64,000 nucleotides of DNA from Gammaproteobacteria bacterium (GCA_036381015.1 DASVDR010000001.1:5325-69324); one strand, 5' to 3'. Shown: positions 22,525 through 34,536, counted from the first letter of the stretch. Numbers and translations are program-made. Notes: a model not told the origin generated them from the letters alone.

Positions 22525-23073
22525 TCAGCGCTGCCGAACCGTGCCGCCCGCGGCACCTAGGCCTTGGAGCTCGAGGGTGCCGGTCTCGCCGTAGACGACG
22601 ATCTCGCCGAGGTGGCCGTCGGCCGGGCACACGGCCGGCAGCGAGGGGCACGCCGCCCGGGCCAGCGCATCGACGGGCTTATCGGGCTGGCACAGGCAGA
22701 TCCTTTGCGGGCATTCGAAGCCGGGCTTGTCGATGCTGCAAGCGTATGCGATCGACGCCCCGGTGCCGGCAACGAGCTCGAATTTCGCTACGCGCCGTCC
22801 TTCGGTGCCTTCGCCGCCGTGCGTGAAAGCCACGGGAGAGGCGGCGTCGGACGCAAAGAATTGCTCGTCCCAAGGTAATTTCAGCCTCGGCCTGAATCGG
22901 TCGAGGAAGGCCTCGGCCTTCGCGGCGAGCGGAAATTCGTTCTCCGCATGCCACTCGCCGTCCTCGATCTGATCTCTTTCGGGGTGATCGACGTCGCCGG
23001 TGCCGAAGCTCAATCCGAGCGCCCCGATCTGCAGGAGCAGCACGACGGCGCAGACGACGACGAGCACCTTCAT
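22525..23073 (-). CDS. Sec-signal, Cys-rich hypothetical protein; last gene on the CIS operon strand
   Basis: 182 aa with signal peptide MKVLVVVCAVVLLLQIGALGLSFG and eight Cys in the C-terminal half (YACSIDKPGFECPQRICLCQPDKP...AACPSLPAVCP). It starts 15 nt after the stop of the PASTA gene. Confidence 0.6.
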   Translation of the reverse strand: MKVLVVVCAVVLLLQIGALGLSFGTGDVDHPERDQIEDGEWHAENEFPLAAKAEAFLDRFRPRLKLPWDEQFFASDAASPVAFTHGGEGTEGRRVAKFELVAGTGASIAYACSIDKPGFECPQRICLCQPDKPVDALARAACPSLPAVCPADGHLGEIVVYGETGTLELQGLGAAGGTVRQR

Positions 23074-23088
23074 CGGAGCTCGGCGCGG

Positions 23089-24147
23089 CTACTGCTGGGG
23101 TCTGCGGAGCTGGAGCATTGGAGTCACCTTGTTTTTGCCGACCTCGAACTGCTGCTGCAGGATCACCACGTCCCCCAGCCGAAGGCCCTGTTTCCATTTC
23201 ATCGTGAAGGTAATCCCCGTCCCGGCGTCCTGCTGACCCGTGGGGCTGACGGACGCCACGGCCGGGTAGTGAAGGTTGGACGGCGGATTGCCCGCCGGCC
23301 CGATGGCGCCGACGTACCTCAAGCCGGCCTTCTCGATCTCGCTGACGGCGGGGCCGAACGCCAAGTCGACGACGTCCGGAACGGTCACCTTTTTCGGCTT
23401 CCACTCCCATCCGAGCTGCACCTTGTCGGGCCTCTCGATCGGCGTGGTGCCGTCCGATTCGGGCGTCTGCTCGGTGACGATCTGATCGTAAAACTGCTGC
23501 CGATCGAATTCGGGTCCGCCGACGGAAAGCGCGATCTCCTCGACGCTGTAGCCCTGGCTCGTGAGCGTGCTCCTGGCCTCGGCGAGCAAGCTGCCCTCGA
23601 AATTGGGGAGGGTCACGCGCTCGTCGGGCCACAACGCCCAGAGCGCGCCACCGACGACGAGCAGCAGGGCGATCGGCGCCGCGATCATCCACCACTTGAT
23701 CTTGGGGTCGGGTTTCGGCTCGAGCGCCGGCGCGCGGAACGCGATCGGCGATCCGGTTTCGAAATCATTGTCGGGGTCGCGAAGATTCACGGCGACCGCG
23801 GCGAACCGATACCCCGCAGGGCTGACGGCCTCGCTCGTACCGGAGCCACCGTCGCCGGAGCCCGGGCTGCCGCCCTCGCCCGGCGCGGGGACGCCGGGCA
23901 CGCTGAGGTCGACGGAAAAGCTTTCCGTCGCGCCGGGAGCGATGTCGCGCTCGTCGCCGCCGCGAACCGTGAACCAGGCCTGCTGGGCGCCTTCGCTGGG
24001 CTTGATGCGCAGACCCGTGCGAATCGTGGCGCCCGTCTTGTTCGTGACGCCGTAGGTCACCGTGCCTTTGGCCGTTTCGCCGGGCTTGACCGACGAAGGG
24101 CGCAGGGTTACCGAAGCTTCCGGGGTCGTGATCGTAAAGCTCGACAT
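23089..24147 (-). CDS. single-pass membrane protein with two C-terminal PASTA-like domains, in the tail-fibre slot of the CIS operon
   Basis: The track ORF runs to 24537. I start at ATG 24147 (MSSFTITTPEAS, SD GAAGAGGG). TM helix is WWMIAAPIALLLVVGGALWALW, preceded by EPKPDPKIK. PASTA-like repeats begin at VTLPNFEGSLLAEARSTLTSQGYSV and VTVPDVVDLAFGPAVSEIEKAGLRYV. Confidence 0.7.
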   Translation of the reverse strand: MSSFTITTPEASVTLRPSSVKPGETAKGTVTYGVTNKTGATIRTGLRIKPSEGAQQAWFTVRGGDERDIAPGATESFSVDLSVPGVPAPGEGGSPGSGDGGSGTSEAVSPAGYRFAAVAVNLRDPDNDFETGSPIAFRAPALEPKPDPKIKWWMIAAPIALLLVVGGALWALWPDERVTLPNFEGSLLAEARSTLTSQGYSVEEIALSVGGPEFDRQQFYDQIVTEQTPESDGTTPIERPDKVQLGWEWKPKKVTVPDVVDLAFGPAVSEIEKAGLRYVGAIGPAGNPPSNLHYPAVASVSPTGQQDAGTGITFTMKWKQGLRLGDVVILQQQFEVGKNKVTPMLQLRRPQQ

Positions 24148-24176
24148 GTCGTTGCCCTCTTCAAGTTGTCGGCGCG

Positions 24177-32248: not shown

Positions 32249-32310
32249 GGCTTGTCTCCTTTATAGGCCGCTCGCGTACGAATGTAGATCGCTCATGCAC
32301 GAACGCGGCG

Positions 32311-33501
32311 TCATGCGGCTTCGAGGTACGCGCCCGACGGCGTCTGACCGATCTTGAAGATGACGAATTCCGCCGGCTTCACCGGGGCGACGCCGATGAC
32401 CGTGATGACCTGTCCGGCATCGATCGTCTCTTGCGGGTTCGTCTCGCGGTCGCATTTGACGAAGAACGCCTCCTCGGGCGTCGCCCCCATGAGCGCGCCT
32501 TGCCGCCAGAGGATCGTCAGGAACGCCGAGACGTCGCGCTTGATCTTCGCCCACAGGAAGTAATCGTTCGGCTCGAACACGACCCAGCCCGTGCCGCGCT
32601 CGATGGAAAGGCGGATCAGCATCATGAGCCGCTTGACGTTCACGTAGCGGTTCTCGCTGGACGAGGCGGCCAAGGTGCGCGCGCCGTAGAGCTTGACGCC
32701 TTCGCGCGAGAAGAACCGCAGGCAGTTCACGCTGGCAGGATTCAGGACCGCCTGATCCGCTTTCGTGATCGGCTGCGTCACGTCGAGCGCGCCGCGCACG
32801 ATCTCGTTGGCCGGCGCCTTGTGCACGCCGCGGCGGAAGTCGGTGCGCGCATAGATGCCGGCGACGTAGCCCGACGGGTAGGTTTCGATGATCTGATTCG
32901 GATCGAGCGCGTCCCGCGTCACGATGCCGCACGCGATCTGTGCGCCGCAGCCCTGCGGGGACTCGCGGGCGCGAAGCCCGCCTTTCGAGCCTTCAGCTTC
33001 CGCGTCCTCCGGCGGTTTCGCGCTCACGCGTGCGACCTGCGTCAACCGGTTGATGTCGGGCACGTGGAGCGGGGAATCCAGGATCGCAAACCGGTCGCCC
33101 GTTTTCTCCGCCGAGGTCAGCAACGCGTCATAGGATTTCGCGTCCGTCTTGCCCGGCGCGGCGATGATGGCGACGTCGTCGAGCTTCTCGAGCACGTCGA
33201 GACCCTTGCCGTTGCCGGTGATCGCGTCGTCCTGCCCCGTATTGACGATGTAGCAACGCGCGCCGCCGTTCAGGAAAAATCCGAGCACGGCCTGTGCCAA
33301 TGGCGTCGACTTGTCCTTTTCGCCGACGTACAGCGAGCGGAACTGCGTCCAATTCGTCACGGCCACGGCCTCGTTCACGCGCGCATCGATCTTCGGCGCT
33401 TGGCCGACGAAGCCGGCCGTGCTGGTCCCGACGGCCTCGATGGGGCGGGCGCCGCTTTCGACCTCCTCGACGTAGACGCCGGGACTCAGGTATTCAGCCA
33501 T
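32311..33501 (-). CDS. contractile tail sheath protein (Afp2-like)
   Basis: 396 aa. The hallmark N-terminus is MAEYLSPGVYVEEV. Further motifs are PSGYVAGIYARTD and RYVNVKRLMMLI. SD GAGGAGACGGAG. Confidence 0.9.
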   Translation of the reverse strand: MAEYLSPGVYVEEVESGARPIEAVGTSTAGFVGQAPKIDARVNEAVAVTNWTQFRSLYVGEKDKSTPLAQAVLGFFLNGGARCYIVNTGQDDAITGNGKGLDVLEKLDDVAIIAAPGKTDAKSYDALLTSAEKTGDRFAILDSPLHVPDINRLTQVARVSAKPPEDAEAEGSKGGLRARESPQGCGAQIACGIVTRDALDPNQIIETYPSGYVAGIYARTDFRRGVHKAPANEIVRGALDVTQPITKADQAVLNPASVNCLRFFSREGVKLYGARTLAASSSENRYVNVKRLMMLIRLSIERGTGWVVFEPNDYFLWAKIKRDVSAFLTILWRQGALMGATPEEAFFVKCDRETNPQETIDAGQVITVIGVAPVKPAEFVIFKIGQTPSGAYLEAA

Positions 33502-34273
33502 GCTCCGTCTCCTCTGGTATCACAACGAGAACTTCCGCCTGCTTCTCGGCATCGACCGAGACATCCACGGATCTGTCGCGGGCTCGCACGGTCAGCGACA
33601 GCGTCCCCTTCGCGGGCGCGCCCGAGATCGTGAAGCGCCCGGCGGCATCCGAGAGCACGCGCTTGTCGAGCGAGCGCGCGTCGATCTCGGCGCGCATGAC
33701 GGGGACGCCCGCCCGCGTGACGACCCTTCCGGTAATGCGTCCGAGCGGCCGCATGCGCACCTCGAGAGGATGGGTGACGATGCCGGGCGCCGAGGCCCGC
33801 TCTCTGCGTACGAGCCGCGCGGTCAAAGCGAGCGTGGCCGGACCGCCGTCGAGCGCGGGCAGGATCGCCCTTGCCCCCTGCCTCGGCGGCGACGCGATGT
33901 CGAAGTCGGCGCTCTCGTGAGCGGCAAAATAAATTGCGCTGTAGATTCGCTGGCTCGCGAAGGCGTCCGCAGCGGTCACTCTGAGCAGATACGTCAGCAG
34001 AAACGTCTCGTCTCTGTTGAGCGACGCCCGATCGGGCTTCTCGGCCGTGATGGCTTGGAAGCACACCTCGATGCGCGGCCGCGCGGCGGCGGCGTCGGGA
34101 GCCTCCGTTCCGGAAGCGGGAGCGGCCGCTTGCGCGGGGGCGGTCGTGAAGTGCGAAACGAAGGCGAGGTCGAACGCCTCCGAGCCGTGTGCGGTCGAGA
34201 TCGTATGCCTGAGCCACGCATCCAACCGGCGACTGAAGTCGTCGATATGGGCCTCGACACCAGGGACGGGCAT
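33494..34273 (-). CDS. DUF4255 (Pvc16_N / Afp16-like tail terminator-cap family) protein with a C-terminal carboxypeptidase-regulatory-like beta-sandwich
   Basis: The track ORF runs to 35482. I start at ATG 34273 (SD GAGGAGAAAGG). The N-terminus is MPVPGVEAHIDDFSRRLDAWLR...LTYLLRV. The C-terminus GRITGRVVTRAGVPVMRAEIDA...SDAAGRFTISGAPAKGTLSLTVRA fits the CarboxypepD_reg pattern. It is the first gene of the operon. Confidence 0.7.
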   Translation of the reverse strand: MPVPGVEAHIDDFSRRLDAWLRHTISTAHGSEAFDLAFVSHFTTAPAQAAAPASGTEAPDAAAARPRIEVCFQAITAEKPDRASLNRDETFLLTYLLRVTAADAFASQRIYSAIYFAAHESADFDIASPPRQGARAILPALDGGPATLALTARLVRRERASAPGIVTHPLEVRMRPLGRITGRVVTRAGVPVMRAEIDARSLDKRVLSDAAGRFTISGAPAKGTLSLTVRARDRSVDVSVDAEKQAEVLVVIPEETEHG

Positions 34274-34536
34274 CCTTTCTCCTCGAACCGCTCTCGGCGC
34301 CGCGAGCACGCACGAGGGCGATCCAATGGATCGAGACAACGATTTCGTCGCTATGCCGCAACTCTTTAGTTGTTCTGCGAAAAAACCTGCTAAGGGTTGC
34401 GGCGCGCGGATAGTTTCGTCCGGGACGAACGGGCAGGTCAAGTTTGACGTGCTATCGAACGTGCGAGCAGCGCCGGACGCGCAGAACCGTCGTGCGCTCA
34501 TACGCACGATCCGCTGCCGGCCGAGTGCCGGAGCCG

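Follow-up and report, generated by a model that had tools for sequence, protein, structure and literature searches.

Contractile injection systems (CIS) are classified, and increasingly engineered, according to how they are anchored, loaded and triggered. In Streptomyces, firing depends on the bitopic membrane protein CisA, which has a sugar-binding-type ectodomain and a predicted interaction with the baseplate protein Cis11 (PMC10066040, PMC12237407). In the thylakoid CIS (tCIS) of Anabaena, Cis13 carries a baseplate-binding N-domain and a transmembrane (TM) helix at residues 122-154, and anchors the particle (PMC8894136). A conserved protein with six TM segments marks the membrane-anchored CIS of haloarchaea, which act as type VI secretion systems (T6SS) (PMC11566945), and in PVC the payloads are loaded by a Pvc15-type ATPase (PMC11495950). 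The AAA+ ATPase is one of the eight conserved subunit types of extracellular CIS (eCIS) (PMC6899500), and a large metagenome screen discards loci in which the ATPase and Cis6 are both missing (PMC12210884). Here, a CIS gene cassette without such an ATPase is described from 64,000 nucleotides of DNA from a Gammaproteobacteria bacterium (GCA_036381015.1 DASVDR010000001.1:5325-69324), hereafter the window, which is chromosomal and has a GC content of ~68%. The cassette belongs to a family that is defined by four features: loss of the ATPase, a Cis11 protein bearing a beta-propeller, an orphan tip protein, and a conserved membrane module.

The operon consists of 12 tightly packed minus-strand open reading frames (ORFs) at 22525-34273 with the third-position GC (GC3) pattern typical of real genes, gene calling being based on GC3 and start-site analysis. 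An earlier reading of this DNA (the sequence-only reading) had described twelve co-directional, packed genes with start/stop overlaps at 33494/33501, 30465/30486, 29623/29626, 27758/27761 and 27291/27310, and all of these were found again by the ORF and GC3 analysis. The stop of G5 overlaps the start of the spike gene G6 as ATGA (29623/29626), and the other intergenic gaps in the operon are 3-62 nucleotides. The limits of the locus were revised. Upstream, the start of the first gene moves from 34536 to 34273, which is most likely correct because it is preceded by GGAGAAAGG and because the orthologues are 224-275 amino acids (aa) long and can be aligned from residue ~9. Downstream, 22525 holds as the end of G12, but a conserved convergent gene at 21828-22517 on the plus strand (F229) had been left out. 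With this gene, the locus is predicted to be a complete 13-gene cassette, composed of the 12-gene operon and the convergent F229:

33494-34273, minus strand: G1, cap or tail terminator (Afp16/Pvc16/Cis16-like), 259 aa, with Pvc16_N matches among its orthologues
32311-33501, minus strand: G2, contractile sheath, 396 aa (Phage_sheath_1, 1.2e-14; Phage_sheath_1C, 9.5e-14)
31772-32248, minus strand: G3, inner tube of the gp19/Cis1 type, 158 aa (Phage_T4_gp19, PF06841, 5.8e-25)
30465-31739, minus strand: G4, family-specific protein in the tape-measure slot, 424 aa, with conserved termini and a hypervariable middle
29623-30486, minus strand: G5, tube-initiator-type protein at the Afp7/Cis7 position, 287 aa (CIS_tube, PF19266, 1.8e-9)
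28103-29626, minus strand: G6, spike/hub (VgrG, Afp8/Cis8-like), 507 aa (Phage_GPD, 7.6e-13; Phage_base_V, 6.3e-20)
27758-28099, minus strand: G7, orphan protein in the spike-tip (PAAR) slot, 113 aa, present in 28 family loci
27291-27761, minus strand: G8, gp25/TssE-like sheath initiator, 156 aa (GPW_gp25, 7.2e-27)
24758-27310, minus strand: G9, baseplate wedge protein (Cis11/gpJ-like plus beta-propeller), 850 aa (Baseplate_J, 6.1e-15)
24177-24728, minus strand: G10, small wedge protein resembling P2 gpI or the Cis12 core, 183 aa, with Tail_P2_I matches among its orthologues
23089-24147, minus strand: G11, bitopic membrane protein, 352 aa, in which an Ig-like N-domain is followed by a single TM helix (~152-170) and then by PASTA units
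22525-23073, minus strand: G12, small signal/anchor protein with conserved cysteines, 182 aa, with an N-terminal hydrophobic segment
21828-22517, plus strand: F229, polytopic membrane protein convergent with the operon, 229 aa, with 7-8 predicted TM segments
34274-34536, no strand: leader and probable promoter region, between the cap gene start and a truncated LysR gene, from gene-start analysis

The Pfam matches for the sheath, tube, CIS_tube, spike, gp25 and Baseplate_J are all above gathering scores, and the corresponding calls of the sequence-only reading (a tail sheath, a gp19-type tube, a spike combining gpD and gp5, GPW/gp25 and baseplate J) are borne out. The Pvc16_N-like (DUF4255) and gpI-like calls hold through orthologues and not through the window copies: Pvc16_N matches 15 of 21 G1 orthologues (best 8.5e-21) and Tail_P2_I matches 16 of 19 G10 orthologues, whereas the window copies of G1 and G10 have no match to the respective family at E<=0.01. 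G10 itself has matches under the cut-offs to TIGR02242 (1.7e-9) and to the middle of the CIS12_fam model (7e-6). The G1 protein ends in a CarboxypepD_reg beta-sandwich (Pfam, 2.4e-8), and G3 matches TIGR02241 above cut-off (NCBIfam). G5 had been described as tube-like and LysM-like; the first part stands, but no LysM match was detected by Pfam. Six dbeCIS subunit types (Afp1/5 tube, Afp2/3/4 sheath, Afp7, Afp8, Afp9 and Afp11) are thus found in one locus above gathering scores, and the Afp16/DUF4255 terminator of that scheme is represented through the G1 orthologues. The ten structural genes, as these profiles assign them, include a cap, sheath, gp19 tube, tube initiator, spike with a Cys/His tip protein, and a gp25-Cis11-Cis12 wedge, and the locus can be taken as a genuine, intact CIS operon, as first proposed.

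Among solved structures in the Protein Data Bank (PDB), the sheath is closest to that of the Streptomyces CIS, CIS-Sc (8BKY/9GTP, 1.5e-90); PVC, AFP and tCIS follow at ~1e-45 (tCIS, 3e-45), and pyocin at 1.3e-8. For the sheath and Cis11 alike, the best PDB matches are CIS-Sc chains, ahead of PVC, AFP and tCIS by some 40 orders of magnitude. Homologues of the sheath number in the thousands, and those in Bradyrhizobium, Sphingomonas and Devosia are ~60% identical. G6 matches AlgoCIS (7AEF_q, 3.4e-23) and CIS-Sc (9GTR_q, 4.9e-17). Residues 1-~480 of G9 match Streptomyces Cis11 (9GTP_1K, 8.2e-68), the protein is recognized by TIGR02243 (NCBIfam, 2.1e-66), and its C-terminal ~370 aa (residues ~490-850) resemble a BNR/GH74-like beta-propeller (PDB propellers, 1.4e-7 over 490-643). 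This extended length, 845-890 aa, is kept in about 35 loci. The gene order had been called P2-like. However, the series cap-sheath-tube-X-tube initiator-spike-tip-gp25-J-I is the general CIS order, the tube is of the gp19 type, and the nearest solved relatives are the Streptomyces CIS.

An alignment of the 850-aa baseplate protein, searched against one genome per species and followed by context look-ups, gave 39 related loci. The hosts are Gamma- and Alphaproteobacteria (Caulobacter, Inquilinus, Kaistia, Thiocapsa, Devosia and Bradyrhizobium), Myxococcota (Archangium and Anaeromyxobacter), Acidobacteriota, Chloroflexota (including Ktedonobacter), Planctomycetota and Verrucomicrobia, and the cassette is found on plasmids of Rhodovulum, Paracoccus and Deinococcus. 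The same 13-14 genes make up the cassette in at least 6 phyla. A neighbour-joining tree of the Cis11 N-domain groups the family in a single clade (36 tips) that contains no canonical locus and lies next to loci of actinobacteria and Chloroflexota; from this tree, the family is read as monophyletic, and either as sister to the CIS-Sc-like lineage or as an inner clade of it. The earlier verdict of an unclear class and mode of action is therefore too weak, because the Cis11 clade gives the class and the conserved membrane module, described below, a likely mode.

The cassette has sharp boundaries with different neighbours in different hosts. For instance, it is bounded by ABC-transporter and acyl-CoA genes on the plasmid of Rhodovulum sulfidophilum DSM 1374 (annotation by the Prokaryotic Genome Annotation Pipeline, PGAP) and by sugar-acid metabolism genes on the chromosome of Devosia sp. 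Root413D1, and in a 93% identical relative, L086, it begins at the cap gene, next to a GH88 gene and not a LysR gene. For this reason, the start of the cassette is placed at the cap gene; the cassette moves as a unit and is horizontally mobile. In comparison with L086, dN/dS is 0.06-0.25 for the structural genes (sheath, 0.06; G1, 0.25) and 0.32 for G11; the cassette genes are uninterrupted, and purifying selection acts on them. At least 39 loci represent this CIS, which is complete and maintained by selection but has no ATPase in its cassette. Additional sheath and tube genes were seen in a Chloroflexia locus (L011 136-2374, minus strand), where a second divergent sheath (566 aa) and a tube lie on the opposite strand just upstream of the cassette, and in a groundwater Gammaproteobacteria locus (L027, ~2400-5900), where sheath and tube genes are duplicated in tandem inside the cassette.

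No Afp15-type ATPase, fibre or toxin gene had been seen in the operon, and this absence extends to the rest of the window and to the flanks of the 39 related loci. A Pfam scan of the called ORFs of the 64-kb window found no AAA+ ATPase, capsid, portal, terminase, integrase, lysin, fibre, T6SS or toxin domain; the flanking ORFs encode transporters, peptidases, oxidoreductases and Planctomycete-type PSD proteins. No toxin domain is conserved across the related loci. A Walker-A scan of window ORF segments of at least 150 aa gave incidental motifs only, with no AAA-type context. Similarly, the 39 related loci, covered to a median of 3.9 kb upstream of the sheath gene and 10 kb downstream of J, have no ORF of at least 250 aa with an AAA-like Walker A, and no AAA family recurs among 75 of their large flanking ORFs. 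The Walker-A screen had no working positive control, as the canonical loci compared end before their ATPase genes, and the absence of the ATPase therefore rests on Pfam and flank annotation. Since the flanks of the relatives also contain no ATPase and the cassette boundaries are sharp, the absence of the ATPase from the locus is a trait of the clade and not an effect of the window edge. In the eCIStem genus table, the eCIS-positive counts are 0/30 for Devosia, 0/2 for Archangium, 0/2 for Inquilinus and 0/6 for Anaeromyxobacter, and all four genera have family loci; compared in this way, by genus and not genome by genome, the ATPase-less clade seems to have escaped the catalogue. Full-text literature searches returned no paper that ties CIS to PASTA domains or describes an ATPase-less CIS. 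The family is widespread and apparently undescribed.

If the locus were the decaying tail module of a prophage, or a dead remnant, homology to myovirus tail proteins would be expected and is present, and in Bradyrhizobium the cassette lies beside an integrase fragment. However, all 13 ORFs are intact and translationally coupled, dN/dS is between 0.06 and 0.32, and the 13-14-gene content is unchanged across at least six phyla. In agreement with the sequence-only reading, which saw no obvious prophage, there are no head, terminase, integrase or lysis genes in the window, whose flanks are metabolic and transport genes, and head, terminase and lysis genes do not recur among the large flanking ORFs of the related loci. 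Additionally, a search of 2.9 million IMG/VR contigs returned no relative of the baseplate protein J, the closest phage sheath shares 35% identity, and of the cassette proteins PHROGs recognizes only J and, weakly, the tube. The locus is therefore not a prophage tail, and decay of one is effectively refuted as an explanation. It was also correctly excluded from the canonical T6SS: the window ORFs contain no TssB/C, Hcp, TssJ/L/M, TssK or ClpV Pfam families, and the sheath consists of one chain of the Phage_sheath_1 type.

In place of a fibre, the cassette encodes a conserved envelope module, composed of bitopic proteins, a small Cys protein and a protein with 7-8 TM segments. The calls of a PASTA/TM protein and of a Sec-signal, Cys-rich protein that follow the baseplate genes both stand. 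G11 has a PASTA match (Pfam, 6.8e-8) and a single predicted TM helix, and G12 has an N-terminal signal/anchor segment and conserved cysteines. There are 1-3 G11 paralogues per locus, and in 40 of 40 paralogues examined an N-domain of ~115 aa is followed by a TM helix at 115-145, with Lys/Arg ahead of the helix and a junction of the 'KKPFPWW' type. The C-terminal domains vary (PASTA, Ricin-B, PAN_4, META, Kelch-like/Cys-rich repeats and extra TM segments). An AlphaFold2 (AF2) model of G11, built on a 55-sequence alignment, shows the N-domain as a beta-sandwich with a predicted local distance difference test (pLDDT) score >90, followed by the TM helix at 152-170 and the PASTA units; Foldseek relates the modelled N-domain to MSP/VAP, PapD-like and ASH Ig folds at about 1e-5. 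The MSP domain of VAP proteins is a cytosolic adaptor domain on membrane-anchored tethers, and PASTA is an extracytoplasmic domain type. Because basic residues precede the helix and PASTA domains are extracytoplasmic, the N-domain should be cytoplasmic and the PASTA units outside, which makes G11 a candidate membrane adaptor or sensor. Homologue searches with the N-domain returned 2 proteins from a single sequence and 60 from a profile of 27 locus-derived sequences. An N-domain profile gave nothing significant against PDB sequences, tCIS Cis13 included, and no match in Streptomyces CIS loci.

The other components of the module are also found in relatives. G12 has orthologues in 8 loci, and hhalign connects it, with probabilities of 93-98%, to c26, c23 and c57, which take its position in other phyla. 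F229 homologues adjoin the cassette in 28 loci of many phyla, usually convergent with the operon. The F229 family has conserved sequence motifs and comprises 352 clusters at 50% identity (E<=1e-3) in a library of 1.8 billion proteins, those listed being 119-334 aa long and mostly 215-290; F229 has no match in Pfam, PADLOC, PHROGs or NCBIfam. Among the 25 loci with at least 6 kb of sequence downstream of J, a bitopic protein is present in 24 and F229 in 22 by clustering, with 2 more by BLAST. The description of the system as a minimal CIS is thus not upheld, as G11, G12 and F229 are conserved membrane components (22-24 of 25 loci). A further polytopic protein, c12, of ~320-380 aa with HExxHxxQ and NPWE motifs, is encoded in 12 related loci (L001, L004-L008, L010, L015, L020, L025, L031 and L034; e.g. 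L004 8594-9709) and has no copy in the window by tblastn. A relationship of c12 to DUF4157, the 'eCIS core' metallopeptidase, is not claimed from one sub-threshold match (E 0.007) and the HExxHxxQ motif.

Proteins with G11-type Ig domains also occur beside two canonical CIS loci. In Actinosynnema (L057, 16940-18280), a 446-aa protein has two such domains and then a TM helix, and in a metagenome-assembled genome (MAG) of Dehalococcoidia (L039, 14834-16684), a 616-aa protein has repeated domains and a C-terminal TM helix. The Dehalococcoidia locus additionally encodes a short Cis11 (653 aa) and a G7-like Cys/His protein in the PAAR slot (9101-9460). To judge from these sequences, L039 and L057 may be evolutionary intermediates between canonical CIS and the ATPase-less family.

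Among described systems, CIS-Sc (dbeCIS IId) provides the nearest solved homologues of both the sheath and Cis11. It similarly has no conventional tail fibre or typical Afp14, and in both systems the baseplate genes are followed at once by a gene for a bitopic membrane protein whose ectodomain is of a carbohydrate-binding type (CisA in Streptomyces, G11 here). In contrast, the sheath of the present cassette is 396 aa rather than 534 aa, one insertion domain being gone; Cis11 has the extra beta-propeller, and Cis12 is only 183 aa; the PAAR protein is replaced by the Cys/His orphan; and there is no AAA+ ATPase gene. The N-domain of G11 is folded and Ig-like, whereas that of CisA is long and disordered, and the two have no sequence similarity. 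Two more conserved membrane proteins are present (G12 and F229), and the hosts are mostly unicellular diderms. G11 is thus proposed as an analogue of CisA, with shared position and topology and no demonstrable homology. The fibre-slot Cis13 of the Anabaena tCIS, with its baseplate-binding N-domain and TM helix, is likewise close to G11 in layout. However, G11 and Cis13 have no sequence similarity, the tCIS sheath is distant (3e-45), and tCIS has Cis12 extensions and a Cis19 crown and targets thylakoid membranes.

By analogy with these systems, the cassette is tentatively proposed to encode a single-shot CIS, retained inside its producer and docked to the membrane; a probability of about 0.45 is given to this reading. 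The particle would assemble without an Afp15/Cis15-type AAA+ ATPase. With no ATPase there would be no known ATPase-dependent cargo loading and no recycling, and the device would therefore fire once; its only obvious payloads would be the spike, the tip protein and the hypervariable protein of the tape-measure slot. The particle would remain in the cell that made it, where the cytoplasmic Ig-like domains of the bitopic proteins would bind the periphery of the baseplate, with the Cis11 propeller or the small Cis12 core as candidate sites, and hold it at the inner membrane face. The ectodomains would bind or sense peptidoglycan or envelope glycans, and contraction, triggered at the membrane, would drive the spike through the producer's own envelope. 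The outcome would most likely be a stress-triggered, one-shot event, like that of the CisA-dependent cytoplasmic CIS of Streptomyces.

The comparison with particles that act outside the producer bears on the main rival explanation. The Afp/PVC eCIS (dbeCIS lineage I) share the set of cap, sheath, tube, Afp7, Afp8, Afp9, Afp11 and the Afp12 core in the same order, whereas the present cassette has no Afp15/Pvc15 ATPase and no Afp13 fibre, has membrane proteins in the fibre slot and single-copy sheath and tube genes, and is not followed by signal-peptide toxins. R-type tailocins and P2-like tails share ATPase-independent assembly and the gpW-gpJ-gpI wedge order. They differ in that the tube here is of the gp19 type and not P2 FII, a Pvc16_N cap is present, no fibre/chaperone, lysis cassette or PrtR/PrtN-type regulators are encoded, and the pyocin sheath is distant. 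The product could be a fibre-less eCIS or tailocin that is freed by lysis, recognizes its target through the Cis11 propeller, and kills by puncture or by delivery of the spike, tip or G4 protein, the membrane proteins then serving release, regulation or self-protection. All core eCIS structural types save the ATPase are indeed present, and no AAA+ ATPase is needed for the assembly of phage tails or R-type tailocins either (PMC12210884). The propeller is similar to BNR/GH74 domains that act on carbohydrates outside the cell, and the cassette moves horizontally, on plasmids or beside an integrase, in the way often seen for bacteriocin loci. However, no holin, endolysin, spanin, fibre or chaperone genes were found in the window, and none recur among the large flanking ORFs of the relatives. 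The fibre slot is always occupied by proteins with TM helices, which is hard to square with a soluble particle. Additionally, the same envelope module occurs in diderm and monoderm-type lineages, contrary to a spanin-like release, and the nearest characterized relatives are cytoplasmic. Release as a tailocin is considered less likely than docking.

The docked, single-shot device has also to be weighed against a contact-dependent weapon, in which a trans-envelope anchor tied to the wall through PASTA would let the particle fire into neighbouring cells while the producer survives, as in a T6SS. The polytopic Hbor_38620 of the haloarchaeal T6SS-like CIS is, by description, analogous to F229 and c12, whereas the archaeal clusters keep the ATPase and Cis12/13. 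A membrane module with a peptidoglycan-binding ectodomain recalls the anchoring of the T6SS membrane complex, the haloarchaeal CIS with their conserved polytopic membrane protein act as T6SS (PMC11566945), and fibre-less CIS of Bacteroidales have been proposed to be T6SSiv-like (PMC12210884). However, toxin-immunity pairs and effector-like genes are not conserved around the cassette in the related loci, there is no ClpV- or Cis15-type ATPase to recycle the sheath, and no TssJLM-like proteins were found in the window. The ectodomains are, furthermore, highly variable between paralogues, which fits sensing or recognition better than a fixed conduit. Because of the missing toxin-immunity pairs, the missing recycling ATPase and this sensor-like diversity, a stress outcome like that of CIS-Sc is favoured over antagonism of neighbours, and the latter is regarded as quite improbable.

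Several points nevertheless weigh against a particle docked in its own cell. Docking is proposed from topology and analogy, G11 has no detectable homology to CisA or to tCIS Cis13, and the topology of G11 follows from the positive-inside rule and the usual location of PASTA domains. BNR/GH74-like propellers are typically extracellular carbohydrate binders, and the Cis11 propeller could be the receptor-binding domain of a released particle. An ATPase may be encoded elsewhere in the genome. Finally, a machine that kills its own unicellular host would call for an explanation by kin selection or abortive infection. PADLOC gives no defence-system match besides one in the PASTA region.

If the membrane module does provide docking or triggering, the principle of CisA and Cis13, with a fibre-slot protein as membrane adaptor, would reach Gram-negative unicellular bacteria. 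A broader proposal, so far speculative and rather unlikely, is that the family represents a further class of CIS action: an ATPase-independent, single-shot device wired to an envelope sensor/anchor complex (Ig-TM-PASTA/lectin adaptors, the signal-anchored Cys protein, the 7-8-TM protein and sometimes a membrane HExxH protease), which envelope damage or a surface ligand would fire from inside the cell in both diderms and monoderms, and which would have been missed because CIS catalogues expect an AAA+ ATPase. Cultured carriers are found in Caulobacter, Devosia, Bradyrhizobium, Inquilinus, Archangium, Rhodovulum, Paracoccus and Deinococcus. Were the docking role correct, compact 13-14-gene cassettes in culturable strains (e.g. 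the plasmid of R. sulfidophilum DSM 1374) would open ATPase-independent assembly, triggering and payload to testing.

Of the candidate payloads, the tape-measure-slot protein G4 has no match in Pfam, NCBIfam or PHROGs. The middle of the protein is composed of 22% Ala, 14% Arg, 14% Pro and 11% Gly, and each end carries a motif that is kept from phylum to phylum, 'P(D/P)AP-HWL' at the N-terminus and 'WP-LP...W' at the C-terminus. Relative to L086, G4 is 43% identical (dN/dS 0.68), whereas the neighbouring genes are 85-95% identical; by region, the termini reach an identity of 0.6-0.7 and the middle one of about 0.3. G4 may act as a length ruler, be carried as cargo in the lumen, or do both. Its pattern of conservation fits a ruler that docks by its ends to the cap and hub, and it is possibly also a rapidly diversifying cargo of the lumen, for which there is a precedent in the effectors, related to tape-measure proteins, that the Streptomyces CIS packages (PMC13277306). 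G4 is overlapped by a spurious ORF of 1199 aa in a different frame.

The spike-tip-slot protein G7 had been called a small PAAR-like protein, but neither PAAR nor DUF4280 similarity was found by Pfam on 22 orthologues, a relaxed Pfam scan or a PDB profile search, and hhalign against canonical CIS PAAR proteins gave a probability of 0.15%; this assignment is not supported. The orthologue alignment has invariant Cys12, His14, Cys48 and Cys60, which could form a metal site. A single-sequence AF2 model (pLDDT 34) has no usable fold, and gene position and the conserved Cys/His residues are what suggest a role at the tip.

Upstream of the cassette, 34274-34536 is an intergenic leader or a LysR remnant, and probably contains the promoter. 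No sigma-70 consensus was found in it, and a promoter/terminator scan of 21700-35300 gave no signal above shuffles. The adjoining LysR gene (34537-35148, minus strand) encodes 203 aa, with HTH_1 and the first ~88 positions of the substrate-binding domain, and the likely missing C-terminus lies in another frame downstream. This suggests a frameshifted or truncated gene, or an error of MAG assembly at the cassette boundary.

On the other side, F229 adjoins a secreted trypsin-like protease (Trypsin_2) of 663 aa (19806-21797, plus strand). L004 likewise has this protease close to the cassette, as do three Archangium loci (L019, L021 and L022; 31-32% identity), and in L035 and L027 the cassette is directly adjoined by genes for caspase-like Peptidase_C14 proteins of about 1000 aa. 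The cassette may have proteases as recurrent neighbours, in a weak association. Beside the Trypsin_2 gene is one for a 432-aa protein (18480-19778, plus strand) with a twin-arginine translocation (Tat)-like signal and a peptidoglycan-binding-like C-terminus. It was considered as a component, but has no counterpart near distant family loci and is regarded as a neighbour. A 125-aa multi-TM protein (17938-18315, minus strand) has a homologue (jackhmmer, 6e-53) directly upstream of the cap gene in a Blastocatellia locus (L010 617-1003) and a partial homologue in L004, and could be an occasional extra component.

Farther out, an uninterrupted ORF of 1721 aa (12177-17342, minus strand) combines Peptidase_S46 (residues 362-1025) with Peptidase_M13_N and M13 (1079-1718), and has the appearance of two fused peptidases, provided that the true start is not internal. 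The segments 39462-42203 (plus strand), 58446-59777 (minus strand) and 59782-62214 (minus strand) encode two large paralogues with the full Planctomycete-type PSD1-5/PSCyt set and, next to one of them, a DUF1552 (HXXSHH) protein. Such proteins are unusual for a MAG labelled Gammaproteobacteria, and may help with its taxonomic placement.

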